From positions 152,334,001 to 152,398,000 of the forward strand of contig CM059430.1 in the NCBI GenBank assembly GCA_030390025.1: 64,000 bases of DNA. Reading direction: 5' to 3'. The notes below the pieces were generated by a model, which was not told the DNA's origin, ran no database searches, and worked only from the letters and a program-made list of their open reading frames with translations. Made by a program: the position numbers and the translations under genes. Origin of the DNA: Squalus acanthias (taxonomy: Eukaryota). This document shows positions 1,373 to 59,857 of the stretch, piece by piece. Within the stretch, counting starts at the first letter, position 1. Each line of letters begins with the position of its first letter.

Positions 1373-1440
1373 ATTAATTTTGATGAGCTACCTAAGACAG
1401 GGAAGCGAACAATCAGCCAGGGTTCTGTTATTCATACTCG

Positions 1441-1838
1441 GGATATGGGCTTCACCAGCAAGGCCAGCATTTATTGCCCATCCCTAATTTCCCAGGAGAA
1501 GGTTCACTAATGTCCTTTAGGGAAGGAAATCTGTCTGGTTTGACCTACATGTTGACTCTTAACCGCCCTCTGAAAAGTCACTTATAAGTGATATTTCAGA
1601 GGGCGGTTAAGAGTCAACATGTAGGTCAAACCAGACAGATTTCCTTCCCTAAAGGACATTAGTGAATCAGATGGGTTTTTACAACAATCCAGTAGTTTCA
1701 TGGTCACCATTACTGGTGCTAGTCTTTCATTCCAGATTTATTTAATTAATTGAATTTAAATTCCCCATCTGCCATGGAGGGATTTGAACTTGTCTCTGGA
1801 TTACTAGTCCAGTAACATAACCACTATGCTACCATACC
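1441..1838 (-). mobile_element. tRNA-headed SINE of the family sharing both ends with the 21474 LINE; internally rearranged
   Basis: Reverse strand reads gtagcatagtggttatgttactggactagtaatccag...gttcaaatccc; tail gggatgggcaataaatgctggccttg lies at about 1460-1485. Confidence 0.75.
1503..1666. repeat. 164-bp spacer-less palindrome
   Basis: Two 82-bp arms centred on 1584|1585 (tcactta|taagtga); only 2 mismatches seen. Confidence 0.95.
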
Positions 1839-4554: not shown

Positions 4555-5005
4555 TAAAGCTTGTTGGCTAGAGGCGCGGCTAGTTCTGGAGCACAAGTCT
4601 TTAGCACGATAGCCGGGACGTTGTCGGGGCCCATAGTCTTTGCCGTATCCAGTGCGCTCAGCCGTTTCTTGATATCACGTGGAGTGAATCGAATTGGCTG
4701 AAGACTGACTTCTGTGATGGAGGCCGATATGGATCATCCACTCGGCACTTCTGGCTGAAGATGGTGGCAAACGCTTCAGCCTTGTCTTTTGCACTCACAT
4801 GCTGGGCTCCACCATCATTGAGGATGGGGAGATTCATGGAGCCTCCTCCTCCCGTTAGTGCCACCATTCACGGCTGGATGCGGCAGGACTGCAGAGCTGT
4901 GATCTGATCCGTTGATTGTGGGATCGCTTAGCCCTGTCTATAGCATGCTGCTTCCGCTTTTTAGCATGCATGTAGTCCTGTGTTGCAGCTTACCCAGGTT
5001 GGCAT
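4555..5005 (-). mobile_element. Fragment of the tRNA-headed LINE family
   Basis: Peptide LTGGGGSMNLPILNDGGAQHVSAKDKAEAFATIFSQKCRVDD is nearly identical to part of ORF 22399-23148. Confidence 0.9.
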
Positions 5006-5018
5006 TTCTCCACCTGTT

Positions 5019-5471
5019 ATAGAAACATAGAAACATAGAAGATAGGAGCAGGAGTAGGCCATTCGGCCCCTCGAGCCTGCTCCGCCATTCAATGCGATCA
5101 TGGCTGATCATCCAAATTCAGTACCCTGTCCCTGCTTTCTCCCCATATCCCTTGATCCCTTTAGCCTTAAGAAATATATCGAACTCCTTCTTGAATATAT
5201 TTAATGAATTGGCCTCAACTGCCTTCTGTGGTAGAGAATTCCACAGGTTCACCACTCTCTGGGTGAAGAAATTCCTCCTCATCTCAGTCCTAAATGGCTT
5301 AACCCTTATCCTTAGACTGTGACCCCTGGTTCTGGACTCCCCACCATCGGAAACAGCCTTCCTGCATCTAGTCTGTCTAGTCCTGTTAGAATTTTATAAG
5401 TTTCAATGAGATCCCCTCTCATTCTTCTAAACTCTCGCGAATATAAGCCTAATCGACCCAATCTCTCTTCA
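5019..5471 (-). mobile_element. CR1 LINE 3' end (inverted partner of 5472-7955)
   Basis: (ATAGAAAC)n tail and 3' UTR; near-identical reverse complement of about 7510-7955. Confidence 0.92.
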
Positions 5472-7955
5472 CAAAAAAGGTGACTCAACCGTGGCTAACA
5501 AGGGAAATTAGGGATAGCATAAGATCCAAGGAGAGGACATATAAATTGGCCAGAAAAAGCAGTAAACCTGAGGATTGGGAGCAGTTTAGGATTCAACAAA
5601 GGAGGACAAAGGGATTAATTAAGAAGGGGAAAATAGAATATGAGAGGAAGCTTGCAGGGAACATAAAAACTGACTGTAAAAGTTTTTATAGATATGTGAA
5701 AAGAAAAAGATTGGTGAAGTCAAGCGTAGGTCCCTTGCAGTCAGAATCAGGGGAATTTATAATGGGGAACAAAGAAATGGCAGACCAATTAAATACATAT
5801 TTTGGTTCTGTCTTCACAAAGGAGGACACAAATAACCTCCCAGAGATGTCGGGGAACATAGGGTCTGATGAAAGGGAGGAACTGAAAGAAATCAGTATTT
5901 GTAGGGAAATGGTGTTAGGGAAGTTGGCGGGATTGAAGGCCGATAAATCCCCAGGGCCTGATAATCTGCATCCTAGGGTACTTAAGGAAGTGGCCCTAGA
6001 AATAGTAGATGCATTGCTGATCATCTTCCAACATTCGATGGAATCTGGAACAATACCCATGGATTGGAGGGTAGCTAATGTTACCCCACTATTCAAAAAG
6101 GGTGGTAGAGAGAAAACGGGGAATTACAGACCAGTAAGCCTGACATCGGTAGTGGGGAAAATGCTAGAGTCCATTATAAAAGATGTAATAGCAGAGCACT
6201 TGGAAAACAGTGACAGGATCGGACAAAGTCAACATGGATTTACAAAAGGTAAATCGTGCTTGACTAATCTACTGGAATTTTTTGAGGATGTAACTAGTAA
6301 AATAGATAAGGGAGAACCAGTGGATGTGGTGTATTTGGACTTTCAAAAGGCTTTCGATAAGGTCCCGCATAAGAGATTAGCATGTAAAGTTAAGGCACAT
6401 GGGATTGGGGGCAAGGTATTGACTTGGATAGAGAACTGGTTGGCAGACAGAAAGCAAAGAGTTGGAATAAACGGGTCTTTTTTCCGAGTGGCAGGCAGTG
6501 ACTAGTGGGGTACCGCAGGGATCGGTCCTTGGACCCCAGCTATTCACAATATATATTAATGATCTAGACAAGGGAACTAGATGTAATATCTCCAAGTTTG
6601 CAGACGACACAAAGCTGGGTGGGCGTATGTGCTGTGAGGAGGATGCCGAGAAACTCCAGGATGATTTGGACAGGTTGGGTGACTGGGCAGAAGCATGGCA
6701 GATGCAATATAACGTGGATAAATGCGAGGTTATCCACTTTGGTGTCAAAAACAGGAAGGCAGATTATTATCTGAATGGCAATAGATTGGGAGAAGGGGAA
6801 GGGCAACACGGTGGCATAGTGGTTAGCACTGGTGCCTCACAGCGCCAGAGACCCGGGTTCGAATCTGACCTCGGGTGACTGTCTGTGTGGAGTTTGCACA
6901 TTCTCCCCGTGTCTGCGTGGGTTTCCTCCGGGTGCTCCGGTTTCCTCCCACTGTCCAAAAATGTGCGGGTTAGGTTGATTTGGCTATGATAAATTGACCC
7001 TTAGTGTTAGGGGGGGATTAAATATGTGGGGTTATGGGGATAGGATGGGATATGTTAGGGGGAATTAAATACGTGGGGTTACGGGGGTCAGGTGGGATAT
7101 GTGTACTGTGGGGATTAAAGCAGGGACAGGGTACTGGATTTGAATGATCAGCCATGATCGTATTGAATGGTGGTGCAGGCTCGACGGGCCGAATGGCCTA
7201 CTCCTGCTCCTAGATTCTATGTTTCTATGTTTCTATGAGACCTGGGTGTACTTGTGCACCAGTCGCTGAAGGTAAGTATGCAGGTGCAGCAGGCGGTTAA
7301 GAAGGCAAATGGTATGTTGGCCTTCGTAGCGAGAGGGTTTGAGTACAGGAACAAGGATGTCTTGCTGCAGTTGTACAGGGCCTTGGTGAGACCACATCTT
7401 GAGTATTGTGTGCAGTTTTGGTCGCCTTATCTGAGGAAGGAGGTTCTTGCCATGGAAGGAGTTCAGCGAAGATTCACCAGGCGATACCTGGGATGGCAGG
7501 AATGACGTATGAGGAGAGATTGGGTCGATTGGGCTTATACTCGCTGGAGTTTAGAAGAATGAGAGGGGATCTCATTGAAACTTATAAAATTCTGAAAGGA
7601 CTGGACAGACTAGATGCAGGAAGGATGTTCCCGATGGTCGGGGAGTACAGAACCAGGGGTCACAGTCTAAGGATAAGGGGTAAGCCTTTAGGACAGAAAT
7701 GAGGAGGAATTTCTTCACCCAGAGAGTGGTGAACCTGTGGAATTCTCTACCACAGAAGGCAGTAGAGGCCAATTCATTAAATATATTCAAGAAGGAGTTC
7801 GATATATTTCTTAAGGCTAAAGGGATCAAGGGATATGGGGAGAAAGCAGGGACAGGGTTCTGAATTTGGATGATCAGCCCTGATCGCATTGAATGGCAGA
7901 GCAGGCTAGAGGGGCCGAATGGCCTACTCCTGCTCCTATCTTCTATGTTTCTATG
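5472..7955 (+). mobile_element. 5'-truncated CR1 LINE, ORF2 RT pseudogene with frameshifts and a SINE insertion
   Basis: KSPGPD, NYRPVSLTS, YLDFQKAFDKV, GVPQGSVLGP, FADD motifs; (TTCTATGT)n tail. Confidence 0.95.
6801..7237 (+). mobile_element. Full-length V-SINE (HE1-like) inserted in CR1
   Basis: A box TGGCATAGTGG, B box GGTTCGAATC, V-domain (gtgggtttcctccgggtgctccggtttcctccc), CR1-type tail; it interrupts the CR1 reading frame. Confidence 0.9.
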
Positions 7956-11598: not shown

Positions 11599-12763
11599 GA
11601 TTGAAACAAAAAAAAGCAAAGCACAAGACCATCAAAATAATGCAGATGACAGCTACACCAATGGGACCAACCAGACCCCCTAGCTTCATTTTGTATAGAG
11701 AGGTAGATAGTGACAGATCACTGAGGACAAAAGGATCTGTTAAATCATGCAATATCTTTAAAAGGCATTGGCTACATTTAACTTACGAAGCTGCTACAAT
11801 GTTAGCTGCTCCAACTTCTGTGGCAGTGTTGTAACACAAAGGATTAGCACTGTGCCTCCGGCCCCCTCAAGAGATGTGTTTACCCCACACCTTCAGAAAT
11901 ATAACGGTTGAATTAGTAAACATAGTGGCCACTAGTGGCATGTACAAACTGCAACCATTTTCTTTTGTATCCCAGGCAGCCAAGTGTCGGCCAGCAGTGG
12001 AACTTTTCAATTCCTGCCTGGATGGAGCTTCCTCAGCTACCTGGCATGGTCGGTGGTCAGAAAAAAGTCACACTGTGGCTTTTAAGCATTCTTTTGTTTT
12101 GGCATTGATGCTTTAAAGAAAGAACTTGTATTTATCATCTCCTCAGCACTTTAAACAGAAAATTAATGAATAACCAGATAATTTGTTTTTCATGGTGAGT
12201 TGAGGGAGGAATGTTGGCCAGGACAATGAGAGAAATCTTTCGTCTTTTCAAATAGTGCGCAGGTACAGTAGCTTGGCATCTAACCAACAATGTGGAACAT
12301 TTCCCAGGTATGTCTTATCCATAAAAAGCAGGACAAATCTAAACCAGCCAATTATCACCCTATCAGACTCCTCCAAACATCATAAAAGTGATTGAAGAAG
12401 TTATCAATAGTGTCATCAAGTGACATCTACTTATCAACAACCTACTCACTGATGCTCAGTTTAGGTTTTGCCAGAATCACTCAACCGCAGACTTACAGCC
12501 TTCATTCAGACATAGGCACGAGAGCTAGATGCAAGAGGAGAGGTGAGGGTAACTGCCTTCGACATCAAGGCAGTTTTTGTCACAAGTATGACATCAAGGA
12601 GCCCTTGCATAATTACGGTCAAAGGGGGTTGGGAGAAACTCCTCCAGTGGCTGAAGTCAAACCTGGCACACAGGAAGATGGTCATAGCTGTTATCACAGC
12701 TCCATGACTTCATTGCCTGAGTTCCTCAGGGCAGCTCTCTCAGCCCACCACCTTCAACTACTT

Positions 12764-13011
12764 TGTTGAGGCTGCCGCGAAACACGAATTAAGACTGAAT
12801 CCATGTGTGGAAAACAAAGGCTTTTTAATACAACTGCATGGTCCAAAATGGCTGAAACCAACTGCTCCCAGAATTCTCTGGAAAAATCCTGAGGCCCCGC
12901 CCACTCCTTTTCTCCTGCCTTAAAGGCAAGGTGCCTTAAAGGCAAGGTGCCCGATATTTTGTCCACGGGCGGAAAAGTGGATTATGCCCGTTTAGGTGGC
13001 GATCCGCCACA
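12764..13011 (-). mobile_element. Solo LTR, 248 bp
   Basis: TG...CA ends, 4-bp TSD ACTT (12760-63 / 13012-15), ATTAAA on the minus strand; cleanly interrupts the LINE. Confidence 0.8.
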
Positions 13012-13243
13012 ACTTCATCAATGACCTTCTGATCAGGAGTGGAGCTGTTCACTGACGATTCTACAGTGTTCAGCTTCATTCGCAACACCTCTGGTAATGA
13101 AGCAGCCCATGCCAACCTACGGCAGGGCCTGGACAACATCCATGCTTGGCAGGTCACATTTGTGCCACATAAATGCCAGGCAATAATCATCTCCAACAAC
13201 AAAAGGCCGAACCACTTACCCTGACCTTTAATAGCACCTTTAC

Positions 13244-13681
13244 GGGTACGCTAATGTAGTGGTTATGTTACTGGACTAGTAATCCAGAAGTCTGGACCAC
13301 TATATTACAATCGAACCTGAGTTCAAATCTCACCATTGCAGTTTTGAGAATTTGAATTCAGTTTTTAACAAATCAGTAAAAGTGACCATGAAGCTGCTGG
13401 ATTGTCTTAAAAAACCCAAATGGTTCACTAATGTCCTTAGTGAATTGGATGTAAACCTGATGTCTTGTACCCAGTCTGGCCTATATGTGACTCCGGTCCC
13501 ACACCAACGTGGTTGACTCTTAACTTCCCGCTGAAATGGCCTAGTAAGTCACTTTGTATGAAAGCGCTACAAAGAATCTGCAGCGGTTGAAGTATGCCCA
13601 ACACCACCTTCTCAGGGCAACTAGAGTTAGGCCTTAAATGCCAGCCTTGCCAGCGATGCCCACATCCCGAGAATAAAAAAA
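13244..13681 (+). mobile_element. tRNA-headed SINE consisting of the 5' ~330 bp and 3' ~100 bp of the 21474 LINE
   Basis: Head and body match 21474-21810; tail matches 24650-24760; ends in an A-run. Confidence 0.85.
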
Positions 13682-14281
13682 GCTCCCCACCATCTACATT
13701 CTGAGTTCATAACTGATCAGAAGCTTGACTGGACCAGCCATATCAACAACTTGGCTACAAGAACAAGGCAGAGTCAGGGTACTTTAGGAGAAGCGGCTTA
13801 CCTCCTGACCCCTCAAAGACTCTCCATTATCTATAATGCACAAGTCAGGGGTGCGATGCAATACTCACCACTTGCCTGGATGTGTACATCTCCATGAGCA
13901 CTCAAGTAGTTTGACACCATCTGGGACAAAGCAGTTTGTTTGATTAGTGCCCCTGCCATTGGACGCAATATCCAGCACCACCCCCACCCCCCACCACCAA
14001 TGTACTGTGGCTGCAATATGCACTATTTACAGGATGTACTGTGACAACTTGCTAAGCCTATATTGACCAGTCCTGTGACTTCCAGCATCAAGAAAGACAC
14101 GAAACGTCATGGAAACACCCTCACCTCCAAGTTCCCCCTCTAAGTCGCACAATCCTCACTGAGACATATCTGTTCCTTCATCTTTGCTGGGTTAAACTCC
14201 TGGCATTCCCTGCCTAACACCATTGTGGAAGAACCCTCACCACAAGGACTGCAGCGGTTCAAGGAGAAGGTGCACCACCAC

Positions 14282-14444
14282 CAACATTCCCTTTAAGCTG
14301 CACGGCCACGCAGCGCTCTGCAGGTCCCTCGCAGCCGGTGAGCTGGCTTTTAAATAGAAAAACCGCGCTTGCGTGGAATTTTGAATGGCCCGCGCAGTCT
14401 GTTAAAGGGGCCGTGCGGGCCAAAAAAAATTAGAGGGAAGATTA
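14282..14444. mobile_element. hAT-type MITE
   Basis: Imperfect TIR CAACATTCCCTTTAA / TTAGAGGGAAGATTA; 8-bp TSD ACCACCAC (14274-81 / 14445-52). Confidence 0.75.
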
Positions 14445-19677: not shown

Positions 19678-21473
19678 TGATATTGATGTAGCAGACACAG
19701 CCTTTTGTGCAGATGATACAACGCGATTCTCTATGAACATCATATGCCATTGCAGTCAATCACTAAATGTCAATGAGAGGGATGAAACTCTATTATGTCA
19801 CCAGCTTCCTCCAGTGTGCCCGTCTCTCCATTGCCCACTTCCAGGTCCTCGCCACCTCCAACAATATTGTGTGCAGCCTCCTCAGCACTTGTCAAGGTTG
19901 CTAGGGTTGGTGTACCTCCTCCAGTCAGTGCTCTCTCCCTCTTGTGGGCTATCTTTTCCTGCAAGGAGGGACACAAGCGAAGTTTCAATCACAGTGATGG
20001 AGTGAGTGTGAAGAATCCCTACCATAGAAGCTTTGAGGGAGACGAAGATGGAACGAGGTGCCAAGAGGAAGCTAGCTCCCTGTGCGTTGTTAGTTGTTGT
20101 CACTGCATGACAGTGAGAGTGAATCTAAGGGGTGCATAGGCAGGATGCTGAAGTGATTCAGTACAGAGACAGAGATGGATAGGTAAGGGTGCAAGGGAAG
20201 TAAGGGTAAGGTGGTATGTGAAGGAGAAGGCTTACAATGCAGAGTGCTGGTGATGAGAAGAGAAGGGAAGCAGATTGAAGGTAAGTGTGATGGGATACTC
20301 ACTTCTGATGTTTGCACAAGATCATTAAACCATTTCCTGCACTGGATCCATGAGCGTGAACATATGGACCTTGCGCTGACCTCCTCAGCAATGCGCAGCC
20401 AGGCTACCCTGGTCTGCTGAGGAAGCTTCCTCCGGCCATCCGGTGGGAAGAGAATCTCCCTGCGCCCTGTACAGCATCAACAAGAGCATGGAGGGACTCA
20501 TCATTAAAGCGTGGAGCTGCCTTGCCTCTGGAAGAACTCATTGTGGATGGAGCAATATCACGGAGTATCAGAATGCAGAAGAGAAAGGCTGAGGCTGAAT
20601 GGCAGCTTTAAAACCAGCTGCTATGATGACATCATCAGAGGCGGCCAGCCGACCCGATCGCACTCATTGGACCGGCCAGCGCGCCCCAATGAACTCAACA
20701 AGCTGATTTAATTAAAATCGGACATCAGCAGCTGATCCCGCCGGAAGCGGCTCCGGAACCCGCCCACCACGCAACCCAACTCCAAGCTGTCTCGGTAATA
20801 AAAATCGAGCCCCTAGTGTCAGAGGACTGAGCTGCTAAAAATGATTTGAAAAGCTTGGACTTTTCAGCCTAGAAAGGAGGTGTCCAAAAGGTATATAAGA
20901 TAGTTAAGGGAATGGAAAAGTAAATCCAGACTATTACTTTCAATTAAATTATGAGGTAGGACAAAGAGACACAGGTTCAAACAGATTTGAGGAAGTTCTT
21001 CTTCACAAATAGTGAAGTAGTGGAGGCAAAAACCCTGGAATTATATAGGAAACAATAATGGGGGGACTTAGGGGTCTTTCTGAATGGAGATGGGCCTCAT
21101 CCATAATTATCTTGTGAAATAACACTGCAGGATGTTATTGTTTTTTTTGGTGATAAGAAGGGATTCTTTAATGCAGGAATACTGTAATATAACTGATTCA
21201 GCATTGTTTAATTGGGCTCAGCTTTAACTTTAAATCCAGTTTGTTTAATCTTGGACAAGGGAATAAATCCCTTGTAATCAGATACGAGGGCTCAGTTGGT
21301 AATCTTAATGTGAAACTGAGTCATACAGACCAAAAAGGTCCCAGGTACCATGCTAGTTTGTATACAGAGGAAGGGGTTATTTTACAGATGCTGGCAGAGT
21401 ATACTTTCCTCCATTTTCCTCATTGGCTGTAAAGCGCTTTGAGACATCCAGTGGTCAAGAAAGGCACTGCATA

Positions 21474-24400
21474 ATGGTAGCATAGTGGTAATGTTACTGG
21501 GCTAGTAATCCAAAAGGCCTGGACTATTGATCTAGAAATGTGAGTTCAAATCCCACCACGGCAGCTGGGGAATTTAAATTCAGTTAATTAAATAAATCTG
21601 GAATAAAAAGCAAATATCAGTAATGGTAACCATGAAACTATCGGATTGTTGTAAAAACCCATCTGGTTCACTAATATCCTTTAGGAAAGGAAATCTGCTG
21701 TCTTTACCTGGTCTGGCCCATATGTGACTCCAGACCCACAGAAATGTGGTTAACTCTTAACTGCCCTCTGAAATGGCCTAGCAAGCCACTCAGTTGTAAC
21801 AAACTGCTACGGAACACAATAATAAGAATAAAACTGGATGTACCACTTGACCTTGGCACTGGCTATGGACATGGCAACGACACACCCAGCCCAGTCGACC
21901 CTGCACAATCCTCCTCACCAACATCTGGGGAGTTGTGCCAAAATTGGGAGAGCTGTCCCACAGACTAGTCAAGCAACAGCCTGACATAGTCACACTCACA
22001 GAATCATACCTTTCAGCCAATGTCCCATCACCATCCCTGGGTATGTCCTGTCCCACCGACAGGACAGACCCACCAGGGGTGGTGGCACAGTGGTATACAG
22101 TCGGGAAGGAGTAGCCCTGGGAGTCCTCAGCATTGACTCTGGACCCCATGATGTTTCCTGGCTTCAGATCAAGCATGGGCAATGAAACCTCCTGCTGATT
22201 ACCACCTACCACTCTCCCTCAACTGATGAATCAGTACTCCTCCATGTTGAACACCACTTGGAAGAAGCACTGAGAGTAGCAAGGGCACAGAATGTACTCT
22301 GGGTGGGGGACTTTAATGTCCATTACCAAGAGTAGCTTGGTAGTACCACTGCTGGCCGAGTCCTGAAGGACATAGCTGCCAGTCTGGGCCTGCAACAGGT
22401 GGTGAGAGAACCAACACAAGCGAAAAGCCTACTTGACCTCATCCTCACCAATCTACCTGTCACAGATGCAGCTGTCCATGACATTATTGGTAGCAGTGAC
22501 CACCGCACAGTCCTTGTGGAGACGAAGTCCCATCTTCACACTGAGGACACCCTCCATCGTGTTGTGCGGCACTACCGCCGTGCTAAATGGGATAGATTCA
22601 GAACAGATCTAGCAGCTCAAAACTGGGCATCCATGAGGCGCTGTGGGGCAGCAGCAGAATTGTATTCCAACACAATTTATAACCTCATGGTCTGGCATAT
22701 CCCTCAATCTACCATTATCATCAAGCCAGGAGACCAACCCTGGTTCAATAAGGAGTGTAGAAGAGCATGGCAGGAGCAGCACCAGGCATACCTAAAAATG
22801 AGGTGCCAACCTGGGGAAGCTGCAACACAGGACTACATGCATGCTAAAAAGCGGAAGCAGCATGCTATAGACAGGGCTAAGCGATCCCACAATCAACGGA
22901 TCAGATCAAAGCTCTGCAGTCCTGCCACATCCAGTCATGAATGGTGGTGGACCATTAAACAACTAACGGGAGGAGGAGGCTCCATGAATATCCCCATCCT
23001 CAATGATGGTGGAGCCCAGCACGTGAGTGCAAAAGACAAGGCTAAAGCATTTGCAACCATCTTCAGCCAGAAGTGCCGAGTGGATGATCCATATCGGCCT
23101 CCTCCTGAGGTCCCCACCATCACAGAAGCCAGTCTTCAGCCAATTTAATTCACTCCACGTGATATCAAGAAACAGCTGAGCGCACTGGATACAACAAAGG
23201 CTGTGGGCCCCGACAACATCCCGGCTGTCGTGCTGAAGACTTGTGCTCCAGAACTAGCCGTGCCTCTAGCCAAGCTGTTCCAGTACAGCTACAACACTGG
23301 CATCTACCTGACAATGTGGAAAACTGCCCAGGTATGTCCTGTCTACAAAAAACAGGACAAATCCAATCCAGCCAATTACCGCCCCATCAGTCTACTCTCA
23401 GTCATCAGCAAAGTGATGGAAGATGTCATCGACAGTGCTATCAAGCGGCACTTACTCACCAATAACCTGCTCACTGATGCCCAGTTTGGATTCCGCCAAG
23501 ACCACTCAGCTCCCGACTTCATTACAGCCTCGGTCCAAACATGGACAAAGGAGCTGAATTCCAGAGGTGAGGTGAGAGTGACTGCCCTTGACATCAAGCA
23601 TTTGACCGAGTGTGGCATCAAGGAGCCCGAGTAAAACTAAAGTCAACGGGAATCGGCGGGGGGGGGGGGGGGGGGGGCGGGTACTCTCCACTGGCTGGAG
23701 TCATACCTAGCACAAAGGAAGATAGTTGTGGTGGTTGAAGGTCAATCATCACAGCCCCAGGACATCGCTGCAGGAGTTACTCAGAGCAGTGTCCTAGGCC
23801 CAACCATCTTCAGCTGCTTCATCAATGACCTTCCCTCTAACATAAGGTCAGAAATGGGGATATTCACTGATGACTGCACAGTGTTCAGTGCCATTCACAA
23901 CTCCTCAGATAATGAAGCAGTCCATGCCCGCATGCAACAAGACCTGGACGACATTCAGAATTGGGCTGATAAGTGGCAGATAACATTCACGCCACACAAG
24001 TGCCAGGCAATGACTATCTCCCACAAGCAAGAGTCTAACCACCGCCCCTTGACATTCAACGGCATTCCATCGCCGAATCTCCCACCATCAACATCCTGGA
24101 GGTCACCATTGACCAGAAACTTAACTGGACCAGCCACATAAATACTGTGGCAACAAGAGCAGGTCAGAGGCTAGGTATTCTGCAGCAAGTGTCTCACCTC
24201 CTGACTCCCCAAAGTCTTTCCATCTACAAGGCACAAGTAAGGAGTGTGATGGAATACTCTCCACTTGCCTGGATGAGTGCAGTTCCAACAACACTCAAGA
24301 AGCTCGACACCATCCTGGACAAAGCAGCATGCTTGATTGGCACCCCATCCACCACCTTAAACATTCACTTGATCCACCATCGGCGTACCGTGGCTGCAGT

Positions 24401-24765
24401 GTGTACCATCTACAAGATGCACTGCAGCAACTCGCCAAGGCTTCTTCAGCAGCACCTCCCAAACCCGCGACCTCGTCCACCTAGAAAGACAAGGGCAGCA
24501 GGCGCATGGGAACACCACCGCCTCCAAGTTCCCCTTCAAGTCACACACTATGCTGACTTGGAAATACATCACCATTCCTTCATCGTCGCTGGGTCAAAAT
24601 CCTGGAACTCCCTCCCTAATAGCACTGTGGGAGTACCTTCACCACACGGGCTGCAGCGTTTCAAGAAGGCGGCTCACCACCACCTTCTCAAGGGCAATTA
24701 GGGATGGGCAATAAATGCTGCCCTTGCCAGCGACGCCCACATCCCATAAAAACGAATTAAAAAAA
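21474..24765 (+). mobile_element. Full-length single-ORF APE-RT LINE (CR1 group) with a tRNA-derived 5' end; ORF now frameshifted
   Basis: APE motifs LLTNIWG, PDIVTLTES, GDFN, LDLILTN, SDH; RT motifs GPDNI, NYRPISLLS, QFGFR, QSSVLGP, FTDD; 3' UTR and A-rich tail. Confidence 0.9.
21478..21553 (+). promoter_or_regulatory. Pol III type-2 internal promoter (A and B boxes) at the LINE 5' end
   Basis: A box TAGCATAGTGG at 21478-88; B box GTTCAAATCC at 21544-53. Confidence 0.7.
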
Positions 24766-26133
24766 ATATAAATTTTCTTTCGCTGCTCCAAGGCAAAGTC
24801 TCCACCTCTGCGCCAGACCGACCAGGCAGGCCTGTGTCTGTGCTGAGTTATTTGAACTCAGCCAGAGCAGCAGTAGGTGTATTACAATTAACCATTTATT
24901 CCCTGGGTTGAGGAACGGCAAATTGCCTGCCCGAATCGCTATACAGCGACCCCTACTGGAAGTGAGCATAATGGGGGCCGAGCTTTCAGGACAGCATCAG
25001 ATTCGTCTGTGATGTCCTTTACAACCAGATAGCCTGCCGACATTCACTGTCATGGCTTACACCTGGGTAACGGCCACTTAGGTGGAAGTACTTTCTATTC
25101 TTGGAACTGTACCTTAATCAGGTGGGGAGGGGGGCAAAATTATACAGGAAAATAATATTAGATGTGAGCGAACACTGCTTTATGCAAATGTCTACGTTTC
25201 CCACTAAAATGAGCAGACAGAAGAAAATCCATTGATCAGGGTTCATAAGTAATTGATATCAACTGCCCAGAATTCAAAGAATATTGTTTTGCTTTATCTT
25301 CCATCTCCGAACTCTACCCTAGTGTAACCTACAACAAAAAATGATAATTGGAAAGGCACAATCAATTTTCTATATAAAATGTGTACATGGAACATTAACA
25401 ACCACCCATGGGGATTCTTTGTAATCTTTTGAAAATGATGAAAAATATAAATGATCCCTAACTAGTCTGTGAAAACATCAAGTGGAAGATAAATTAAGCT
25501 ATCTTTATTCAAAAATTACATAATTTCCCCCTAAAGCTATGATGATGCTGACTAGGTAAATGATGTTTTACTCACTGACAAGCTCCCTTACTGCTGAAGG
25601 GCATCGAAGCGAACGAGACAATTGGAAGGGAGACTGTTATTTGCAAGGAGCTGTGACATGAGGGATGAGTTCAGAGGGATTTTAGCCTATGAGACAATTT
25701 GTCAGTTTCAGAGATGGTACTGGTGATTCGCCTCATAAAATCTGCCAGAGGCATTGCAAGCTGGCTGTCAAATAGGTAATGTGATTATCAATAGCGCCCC
25801 TCTAGTGGAAGCATCTGTTTAAGTAAATGAGGCTAATATGAAATGTTGTCCTCTCACTCTCGCTTGCTCTCTTGCGCTCTCGTGTCTGTGTGTATCTGTT
25901 TTGCGGGAGAGTTGCAATGCAACAGCACTGCGAAGCCACCTGTCCTTGACATGCTTTGAAAACACATTTCAAGCTAGAAGATGGTATTAACAGGAACTTG
26001 GACAAAGCGTGAGTGACTGTCTACAAAGCTCCGTGCTCAGGGAAGCCTCAGCTTTACCCCAAGGAAGTTAGATCTCGGAGTTGTTTCAAAATGCAAAACC
26101 TGTGACTTGCTTTCATTTCCTTAAACTTCGACA

Positions 26134-54412: not shown

Positions 54413-55082
54413 CTGAGCAGTGTCCTAGGCCCAACCATCTTCAGCTGCTTCATCAATGACCTTCCCTCCAACATAAGGTCAGAAATGGGGTTGTTCGCTA
54501 ATGACTGCACAGTGTTCAGCGCCATTCACAACTCCTCAGATAATGAAACAGTCCATGCCCGCATCCAACAAGACCTGGATGACGTTCAGGCTTGGGCTGA
54601 TAAGTGGCAGGTAACATTCGCGCCACAGACGTGTCAGGCAATGACTATCTCCAACAAGCGAGAGTCTAACCACCTCCCCTTGACATTCAACGGCTTTTAC
54701 TGTGCGTACCGTGGCTGCAGTGTGTCCCATCTACAAGATGCACTGCAGCAACTCGCCAAGGCTTCTTCAGCAGCACCTCCCAAACCCGTGACCTCGTCCA
54801 CCTAGAAGGACAAGGGCAGCAGGCGCATGGGAACACCACCACCTCCAAGTTCCCCTCCAAGTCACACACCATCCTGACTTAGAAGTATATCGCCGATCCT
54901 TCATCGTCGCTGGGTCAAAATCCTGGAACTCCCTAACAGCACTGTGGGAGTACCTTCACCATACAGACTGCAGTGGTTCAAGAAGGCGGCTCACCACCAC
55001 CTTCTCAAGGGCAACTAGGGATGGGCAATAAATGCTGGCCTTGCCAGTGATGCCCAGATCTCATAAGTGAATTAAAAAAAAA
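54413..55082 (+). mobile_element. 3' part of the tRNA-headed LINE family, internally deleted
   Basis: Matches 23783-24063 joined to 24383-24760. Confidence 0.9.
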
Positions 55083-58718: not shown

Positions 58719-59857
58719 TATCATAATGTTAACTTTAGATATGGTGCAGTCTGAGTATTTGCATAATTTCTCACCTGCACCAATAGGATTCTATCAATTC
58801 AGTGGCAGACTAACTCACAGCTGGAAGAAAGTGTCTTTGAGATTTTGCAAAACAAGTTGCAGAATGAATTTTTGGGGTAATGTTTCATATTTTTCACTTT
58901 TTTATAAAACATCATGGCCTCTGACTTTGCATGAGAAATGATATGGGAAATCAACTAGTATTAGAAGAACTTCATGTCTGGAAGCACTTTTTATCCATCA
59001 CATACTAGGCAATGCAAATTTAAGTGTCATGTTTGAAAAAATAACAAAGGCAGTCATTTGGAATGTCTGAACCCTCCAGCAACAGAACAGTGTCGCAATG
59101 TCTGCAGACACTCAACTGACCTTCCAAGACACAAAGCCAGTGTTCTGTTTACCAATCTGAATAGCAATTAACCCTTGAATGAACTAACCCAGTGTTTAGC
59201 TGACCTGAATAAGACTTTGTAGCCTTAAAGGGACACATACCTATACTTTGGCAACAGAATAAGGCAACACATCCTTTGAGTCACAAGTAGTGCCACAGGA
59301 GATTAACTAATAATGTTATAAAACAGTACTTTATGTGCATTTTCTGTCTGTCACTCTTTCCTGCCACACTCAAATTTCTGTCTCAGACTTCAAACAAAGA
59401 TATAAAGAAACAAAGCAACTCTCCAGAAACACAAAATACTGATCAAAATGCTGATCATTGGGAGTCGGCTGATAGGGTGGTAATTGGCCGGGTTGGATTT
59501 GTCCTGCCTTTGTGGACAGGCAATTTTCCACATTGTTAAGGTAGATGCCAGCTTAGCTAGGGGCACAGGTCTTCAGCACTACAGCCTGTATGTTTTCGGG
59601 GCCCGTAGCCTTTACTGTTTCCAGTACACTCAGCTGTTTCTTGATGTCACATGTGTTTCTCTTGTCAATTCTCCATACAATTGCCCATTTCAGGTGGTCC
59701 AGAAGCATCCAGCTTTTCCTCCTTCTTGGTCGTTTCCTTCCATCTACACATCGCTACAAACATGGACTTTTAAATGGGGCAATCCATTTACTCTAAACTC
59801 ACACTATCTTCCTCCCTGTCAGCACTAATTTAAGACACTAAGCCAGTTTCAAAACTG

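Follow-up and report, generated by a model that had tools for sequence, protein, structure and literature searches.

The window analysed here, a stretch of 64,000 nucleotides of Squalus acanthias DNA, contains at 21474-24765 (+ strand) a tRNA-like head with A and B boxes that leads directly into the reading frame of a LINE. Runs of four or more T (T4) terminate vertebrate Pol III, and LINEs are normally Pol II transcripts. The locus raises the question whether two repeats lie side by side by accident or whether an autonomous LINE family carries, and uses, a Pol III promoter. An earlier note on this DNA had proposed the latter, with selection for Pol III read-through of a protein-coding RNA. 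We find that head and frame form one unit throughout the family, and sequence evidence makes its transcription by Pol III fairly probable.

Organization of the element

Based on the identity of its 5' part with published Zenon consensuses, the window copy is assigned as a decayed full-length copy of the elasmobranch Zenon LINE, a member of the CR1 group that has one APE-RT frame and an A tail. Its parts, all on the + strand, are as follows.

21470..21560 (+): tRNA-derived head (Rfam tRNA match at 21477-21557); full copies of the family start 8 nt ahead of the A box, and the first ~4 nt are diverged in the window copy
21478..21488 (+): A box, TAGCATAGTGG; same box in the consensuses of five elasmobranch species (by eye)
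21543..21553 (+): B box, AGTTCAAATCC; three other sharks have GGTTCGAATCC
21561..21653 (+): AT-rich spacer, free of T4, in which AATAAA occurs twice (21591, 21602)
21654..21799 (+): conserved SINE body, common to the SINE-like copies and to 7/7 elasmobranch consensuses
21800..21907 (+): linker plus Arg-rich N-terminal stretch, both read in the ORF2 frame; the ACG at 21809-21811 is a candidate non-AUG start
21908..22510 (+): APE endonuclease domain (TNIWG, TESY, GDFN, SDH), broken in the window copy
23149..24140 (+): reverse transcriptase (RT) domain with RVT_1 matches, interrupted by stops and by an inserted poly-G run
24141..24701 (+): C-terminal stretch of the ORF, closed by TAG at 24699-24701
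24702..24765 (+): short 3' UTR and short A tail, with AATAAA at 24710-24715; common to the SINE-like copies
24773..24776 (+): first TTTT, in unique flank 7 nt beyond the tail, which would end a Pol III transcript of the window copy

The order described in the earlier note, A and B boxes and a SINE-like body followed by the APE domain, is borne out by position (APE onset at ~21905, ILLTNIWG) and by the Rfam tRNA match, a weak one of 22.3 bits (E 0.045) that lies under the gathering score of 29. The two boxes, arranged as in a type 2 Pol III promoter, belong to a tRNA-like fold that opens the element, with a spacing of 54 nt versus the 30-40 nt cited for SINEs, and the B box of the window copy deviates from the GGTTCGA form. 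The conserved body, putatively Deu-domain-like, ends with ATG GCC TAG (21773-21781), followed by an in-frame TAA (21797-21799). Since only ~430 nt precede the APE domain, there is no space for an ORF1, as had been remarked, and the family lacks one as well (leader of ~430 nt, upstream frames of at most 77 codons). The window copy itself is dead, with stops at 22183, 22333, 23146, 23632 and 23638, frame changes near 22020 and 24050, a run of 20 G at 23658-23677, and FTDD at 23863 for the FADD of the family. The terminal TAG is found at the same place in at least 136 of the 3' ends listed and the AATAAA is intact in 135/141.

The head-ORF junction is a family trait

The abundance of SINE-like copies, and one old copy lying inside an old Zenon in the window, might suggest chance adjacency or a LINE with a single target site within SINE copies. 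The family leaves hardly any room for either, however. When a 627-nt junction query was searched against the species' own 3.7-Gb genome and the best 40 of 10,960 candidates were scored, the junction was covered by 39/39 non-self copies at 88-90% identity; all of them go on into the ORF, 20 unbroken to the tail. An exact body-to-ATGAAAC pattern across the junction gave 2,632 matches (control 0), seven of the first 100 hitting a decayed ACG instead. The check proposed in the earlier note, whether the head is joined to the ORF at one point in many copies, has therefore a clear answer: the junction is not peculiar to this locus but common to thousands of copies. With a query limited to the head, 25/29 loci extend into the ORF (7 of them already among the junction copies) and four end at 325-350 nt. 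Selection by RT protein gave 46 distinct loci (best 30 of 150 matches, and 20 picked for long open frames), most of them 5'-truncated; 14 extend upstream beyond the start of the ORF, and each of them runs into the same leader, no alternative 5' end being found among these 14. The 5' end is sharp, with a G at column -8 (8 nt before the A box) in 50/65 heads and column -9 near background, which places the start of full copies at the tRNA +1 region. We thus reject both chance adjacency and SINE-targeted insertion, given the same junction in 39/39 copies, the unique 3' flanks with no SINE remainder after the tail, the lack of an upstream head in 5'-truncated copies and the same fusion in five species (by eye). 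The 5' truncation and A tails are compatible with TPRT; among 11 complete copies no target-site duplication could be detected (1.18 nt on average, against 0.86 after shuffling; P 0.155). Many copies (L281, L340-L353) show several internal deletions of 5-40 nt, at differing places.

Relatives and age of the fusion

In copy L161, an 819-aa natural frame holds APE (PF03372/PF14529) and RT (PF00078) in one ORF. The longest natural frames reach 819 and 874 aa, and no fully intact copy was seen among the copies examined. Further Zenon fragments of the window resemble L161 at 89% (4564-5004, -), 92% (54417-55082, +) and 69% (59449-59653, -). Full-length relatives are 33-41% identical (nearest proteins 33-45%), and the element clusters with sponge, shrimp and beetle members. 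An RT tree without labelled Zenon rows, from which a length filter removed 4/43 rows including the CR1 row, groups it with sponge- and beetle-cluster proteins in a clade supported at 98/96. Much closer are partial shark and ray proteins, with 90% and 82% amino-acid identity. Two annotations were noted in passing: a shark protein named aldo-keto reductase contains a stretch of Zenon at 90% identity, through exonisation or misannotation, and a LINE ORF2 filed under a bacterial MAG name is probably host DNA.

According to PMC13343379, Zenon elements occur in elasmobranchs, coelacanth and hagfish, invariably lack ORF1 and end in a poly-A tail, and the elasmobranch consensuses are more than 84% alike to one another. 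Since ORF1 absence is thus known of all Zenon elements, it is uninformative on the polymerase and we reject it as Pol III evidence. In Supplementary Table 2 of that work, the first 400 nt of the seven elasmobranch consensuses (three SquAca entries, three other sharks and one ray, i.e., five species) all open, by eye, with the tRNA head and are free of TTTT. In the same 400 nt, the two hagfish and one coelacanth Zenon (3/3) are headless and contain TTTT, the coelacanth 5' end being of low confidence. Among ~1,000 consensus rows cut to 400 nt, the body motif occurs in the seven elasmobranch Zenon rows only, and in these the A and B boxes were kept across five species while the spacer changed (by eye). 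No tRNA head was found by ARAGORN in 49 metagenome loci, nor by an A/B-box pattern in 60. The presence of the head in both shark and ray consensuses dates the fusion of head and ORF before the shark-ray split. This split occurred roughly 250-300 Ma ago.

SINE-like deletion forms

A head-to-tail pattern returned at least 1,009 SINE-like matches (control 0), which look like deletion products of the headed LINE. Among the first 100, about four junctions recur beside many singletons, and ~29 retain 10-30 nt of the LINE linker (by eye); in eight copies examined, each junction is different and some copies are only 74-85% like the young family. As the junctions differ and LINE linker is retained, SINE forms would have arisen repeatedly by deletion from headed LINEs, with amplification of some. 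These copies are presumably SacSINE1. The reported presence of SacSINE1 in chimaera, with relatives in coelacanth (PMC5499810), suggests that the SINE came first and that the LINE captured its head. In a likely course of events, a Zenon living in an elasmobranch ancestor took up the head of the SINE that parasitised it, and SINEs were afterwards produced anew by deletions within the headed LINE.

Two other places in the window carry such copies. At 12274-14282 (+), an old fragment of Zenon, 70-74% like the young family, has a head-plus-tail copy inserted at 13256-13668. At 1440-1838 (-), an ARAGORN 'tRNA-Thr' (1770-1838) overlaps a SINE-like head (1636-1812, 77%) with its tail at 1440-1503, and is likely a SINE, not a tRNA gene.

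Depletion of T runs

The window copy has no TTTT and 16 runs of four or more A. It lies in a T4-free stretch of 3,355 nt (21418-24772), longer than any other in the window; the runner-up measures 1,159 nt. The sense strand is indeed TTTT-free with frequent AAAA up to 24773, as the earlier note had read it by eye, and the window CR1 and L2 do carry several sense-strand T4 (five and six, respectively, both +). This CR1 (5026-7955) belongs to a very young family, 98-99% identical to other copies, with open frames up to 1,015 aa; the copy has ~430 extra nt at ~6808-7236 and an inverted copy of its own 3' part at 5026-5471.

Family copies (tails trimmed, 7 duplicate loci left out) contain 28 T4 in 177,884 nt (0.16/kb), at scattered places, versus 755 A4, whereas CR1 and L2 of the same genome (24 copies each) have 2.37 and 5.12/kb at shared sites, matching the expectation from composition. 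In 215 distinct pieces, columns with T as the commonest base form 465, 74, 8 and 0 runs of lengths 1 to 4; for A, C and G, such runs extend to 5-6. Although 40 sites are a single change short of a T4, not one of the 103 common variants creates it. No T4 is thus common to the copies and ORF1 is absent, so that in these two respects the family behaves as the earlier note anticipated. By comparison, the frames of all 60 relatives (metagenome loci with a frame of at least 450 aa, 60 of 80) hold two or more T4.

T4 absence as such is rejected as proof, since it is not significant against codon nulls (P 0.04-0.25). For the window copy, base composition predicts 4.9 T4 (P0 0.005), but dinucleotides predict 2.35 (P0 0.10) and trinucleotides 1.42 (P0 0.24). 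Synonymous shuffles predict 1.2-2.6 per frame (P 0.07-0.25, or 0.04-0.18 with Phe codons redrawn), and 16/20 frames tested in this way have none. The possibility raised at the outset, that composition explains the missing T4, is therefore answered in the negative for base composition and left standing for the richer nulls; likewise, of the two controls then proposed, codon shuffling gives no significance while CR1 and L2 hold far more T4.

The case for Pol III from T runs consequently rests on the depletion of TTT and on the comparison with relatives. In two open frames, runs of three or more T number 5 vs 16.3 and 4 vs 15.9 expected by composition (0.31 and 0.25; relatives' minimum 0.52, median 1.19), and 5 vs 9.8 and 4 vs 10.6 under synonymous shuffling (0.51 and 0.38; relatives' minimum 0.66). 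Both frames are below all 60 relatives on both measures, while A runs are at expectation. The whole window copy, at 0.52 of expectation, equals the lowest relative. The P values overstate the effect, since the CR1 control is also short of such runs against its synonymous shuffle (25 vs 32.8, 0.76, P 0.01), and the T-run evidence is close to one evolutionary observation, since all copies descend from a few masters. Searches with diverged copies for older Zenon subfamilies, as an independent T4 test, gave the same family. Phe makes up 1.9% of the protein vs 2.3-5.3% in 20 relatives. Taken together, a T-specific depletion appears real and is supportive, coming from essentially one lineage.

No in-frame AUG before the endonuclease

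No AUG is found in frame ahead of the endonuclease at family level: the first in-frame Met is residue 279, past the SDH at 233, i.e., after the whole APE domain. The leader holds 8-12 ATGs in six copies, all with short frames. The requirement for non-canonical translation, stated in the earlier note from one copy, thus finds support across the family, and ordinary scanning is predicted to be unable to make the endonuclease, whichever polymerase makes the RNA. The ORF2 frame opens after the TAA with an A-rich linker and then an Arg-rich peptide; the N-terminus of the closest relative is Arg-rich too, although a Met is present there. An ACG follows the stop in 41/62 parsed copies, and 14 more have its two CpG-decay forms. 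In the published consensuses of the four other species (by eye), ACA or AAA stands at this position, the linker is in frame, and three have an in-frame TTG upstream. Judged by eye, none of the five species has a linker that leaves the ORF2 frame, and 51/79 copies hold it as well, AAT repeats favouring 3-nt slips.

Initiation at a non-AUG codon is our best guess, with frameshifting and reinitiation as further candidates. An AUG start followed by a -1 frameshift from the out-of-frame ATG (48-codon frame) is disfavoured: this codon reads ATA in 17/79 copies, the window copy included (21828-21830), and no slippery heptamer was seen by eye. The ATA goes with seven loosely linked variants (uncorrected P 0.001-0.003). 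Readthrough from ATG GCC TAG CAA is not favoured either, a second stop (TAA) coming next in most S. acanthias copies. The ATG GCC TAG ending of the conserved body is kept in the published consensuses of five species, in the ORF2 frame in 4/5 (by eye). A consensus fold gave no support for a conserved leader structure (covariation term +0.74, two-sided change in 3/58 pairs).

Discussion

We lean towards a headed Zenon LINE that is transcribed by Pol III from its head and translated from a non-AUG start, a reading drawn from sequence comparisons. TFIIIC would bind the A and B boxes of the head, and Pol III would read 3.3 kb up to the first T4 in the flank, selection on master copies having removed T4 together with most T3. 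Ribosomes would reach the uncapped RNA, which carries 8-12 upstream AUGs, by a route other than ordinary scanning, a start in the ORF2 frame (ACG in S. acanthias) would give the Arg-rich N-terminus, and ORF2p would bind the 3' tail and prime reverse transcription at the target. Proteins can be produced from Pol III promoters once TTTT is removed from the reporter (PMC8223928). In favour of Pol III, the leader has no space for a LINE-type Pol II promoter and shows two AATAAA within its first 140 nt. Against it, the tail ends in AATAAA-poly(A) like that of Pol II LINEs, the B box is off the GGTTCGA form with the head under the tRNA gathering threshold, and, in the published consensuses of the four other species, ACG is not at the start position (by eye). 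A built-in TTTT or TCTTT terminator after the AATAAA is not the rule, as 1-3 T follow in 100/141 ends and four or more in ~21 (by eye). One contig set presumed to be RNA (its status is our guess) covers 30/30 bins with a strong 3' excess and SINE-type joints, these contigs bearing no information on start, strand or polymerase. Of the original proposal of selection for Pol III read-through, the junction and the T depletion hold, whereas ORF1 absence is uninformative and T4 absence alone not significant, so that Pol III transcription keeps the standing of a probable explanation.

Deu-type SINE bodies can act as enhancers. The headed LINE could be autonomous and made by Pol II, with the SINE body as promoter or enhancer, or by host read-through, the head only setting the 5' end (e.g., by RNase P-type cutting) and T-poverty reflecting C-rich codon use. 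Such a scenario, which we regard as unlikely but not negligible, would fit the AATAAA in the tail, the T4 nulls and the persistence of tRNA-like stems; lepidopteran Zenon derivatives without a Pol III promoter (PMC6740152), promoter swapping among Pol II LINEs (PMC13174262) and the enhancer role noted in general terms for body domains (PMC5499810) lend it precedents. It accommodates less well the A and B boxes kept in the published consensuses of five species while the spacer changed (by eye), the depletion of T3 runs beyond 60/60 relatives and synonymous shuffles with A runs at expectation, the two AATAAA in the first 140 nt and the amplification of SINE subfamilies cut from the same head; moreover, an RNA cut at the head would also be uncapped. 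Quite improbable, in our opinion, is that Pol III makes the headed copies but no translation follows, an unseen, Pol II-transcribed master with an AUG moving them in trans as very long SINE-like passengers. The missing in-frame AUG ahead of APE with 8-12 AUGs upstream, the lack of a fully intact copy among those seen, and the Met right before APE in the closest invertebrate relatives would be expected of passengers, yet 14/14 RT-selected copies have no other 5' end, the ORF is conserved across sharks and rays (partial proteins at 90% and 82%, consensuses above 84% in PMC13343379), and the linker keeps the ORF2 frame in five species (by eye) and in 51/79 copies, even if AAT repeats favour 3-nt slips.

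Returning to Pol III transcription from the head, a fuller version of this model, which we offer tentatively and as somewhat short of probable, is that of a natural Pol III-made protein-coding autonomous retrotransposon existing since before the shark-ray split. The LINE would have taken over a SINE promoter and purged terminators from a 2.9-kb ORF, the conserved (Deu-like) body would serve cap-independent ribosome entry for the non-AUG start, and SINE subfamilies would continue to derive from it by internal deletion. LINEs are taken as Pol II transcripts and Pol III as confined, in normal biology, to non-coding RNA (PMC5786205, PMC8223928); if the model is true, a high-copy family making a ~950-residue enzyme from a tRNA promoter breaks both rules in a natural genome, offers a route around Pol II-directed silencing and blurs the division between SINE and LINE. 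The role of highly conserved SINE body domains is presented as an open question in PMC5499810, and becomes testable here because one body adjoins a start-less ORF. Should Pol II prove to be the polymerase, the architecture would still put right which LINE is the partner of the SINE, and would illustrate how a headed LINE gives rise to SINE subfamilies through simple deletion.

Comparison with known systems

Small RNA sequence 5' of a LINE is also seen in tRNA/L1 chimeric insertions, but those described in PMC13174262 are 21 one-off human loci, mostly with antisense tRNA halves and no amplified family. T+ SINEs such as B2, Dip and Ves (PMC8466645) resemble the Zenon ends by a Pol III head, an AATAAA near the 3' end and a T run growing at a short A tail, and differ by being non-coding with a built-in terminator, which most Zenon copies lack. 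In Zenon, the T run before the A tail ranges from 1 to 11 T (e.g., L146, L159, L289) and the A run shrinks as it grows, similarly to terminator elongation in B2 (PMC8466645); this growth is probably post-insertion slippage and was not counted as evidence.

The Persaeus SIDE derived from Zenon (PMC6740152) and the RTE/Vingi-derived SINE bodies (PMC5786205) join 5' and 3' ends by internal deletion, as here, but in the accounts given a Pol II UTR forms the 5' end of the LINE, the tRNA head being a later addition, while here the autonomous LINE itself is headed. The tRNA-Deu SINEs SacSINE1 and LmeSINE1 (PMC5499810) share with our SINE-like copies a tRNA head, a conserved body and a LINE tail; they measure 430-460 nt and occur in sharks and skate. 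They are non-coding, unlike the window element, which at 3.3 kb with an APE-RT frame departs from the short, non-coding definition of a SINE; a LINE with a SINE head is not described in the available text of PMC5499810. The SacSINE1 tail is matched there to L2-2_CM at 78.6%, while the SINE tail here corresponds to the Zenon 3' end at ~79-92%.

Zenon and CR1-Zenon elements of invertebrates, hagfish and coelacanth have a single APE-RT frame and an A tail like the element studied here, and differ by the absence of a tRNA head, the presence of T4 and, in most full-length relatives, a Met shortly before APE. Closest of all are the elasmobranch consensuses CarCar, HypSab, RhiTyp, ScyCan and SquAca (PMC13343379, GBE 2026), which are the same family (3.2-3.3 kb, no ORF1, A tail) and match the first 400 nt of the window element by eye, the SquAca entries best. 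In the main text of that work, 'tRNA' does not occur and 'SINE' occurs once, in the reference list, the head, the T-run depletion, the missing AUG and the SINE link being undiscussed there. Our own search, which had subscription papers and Repbase/Dfam notes outside its range, found no published account of a SINE-headed or Pol III-made autonomous LINE. To conclude, the element belongs to a known Zenon family with a previously unremarked SINE-headed architecture.
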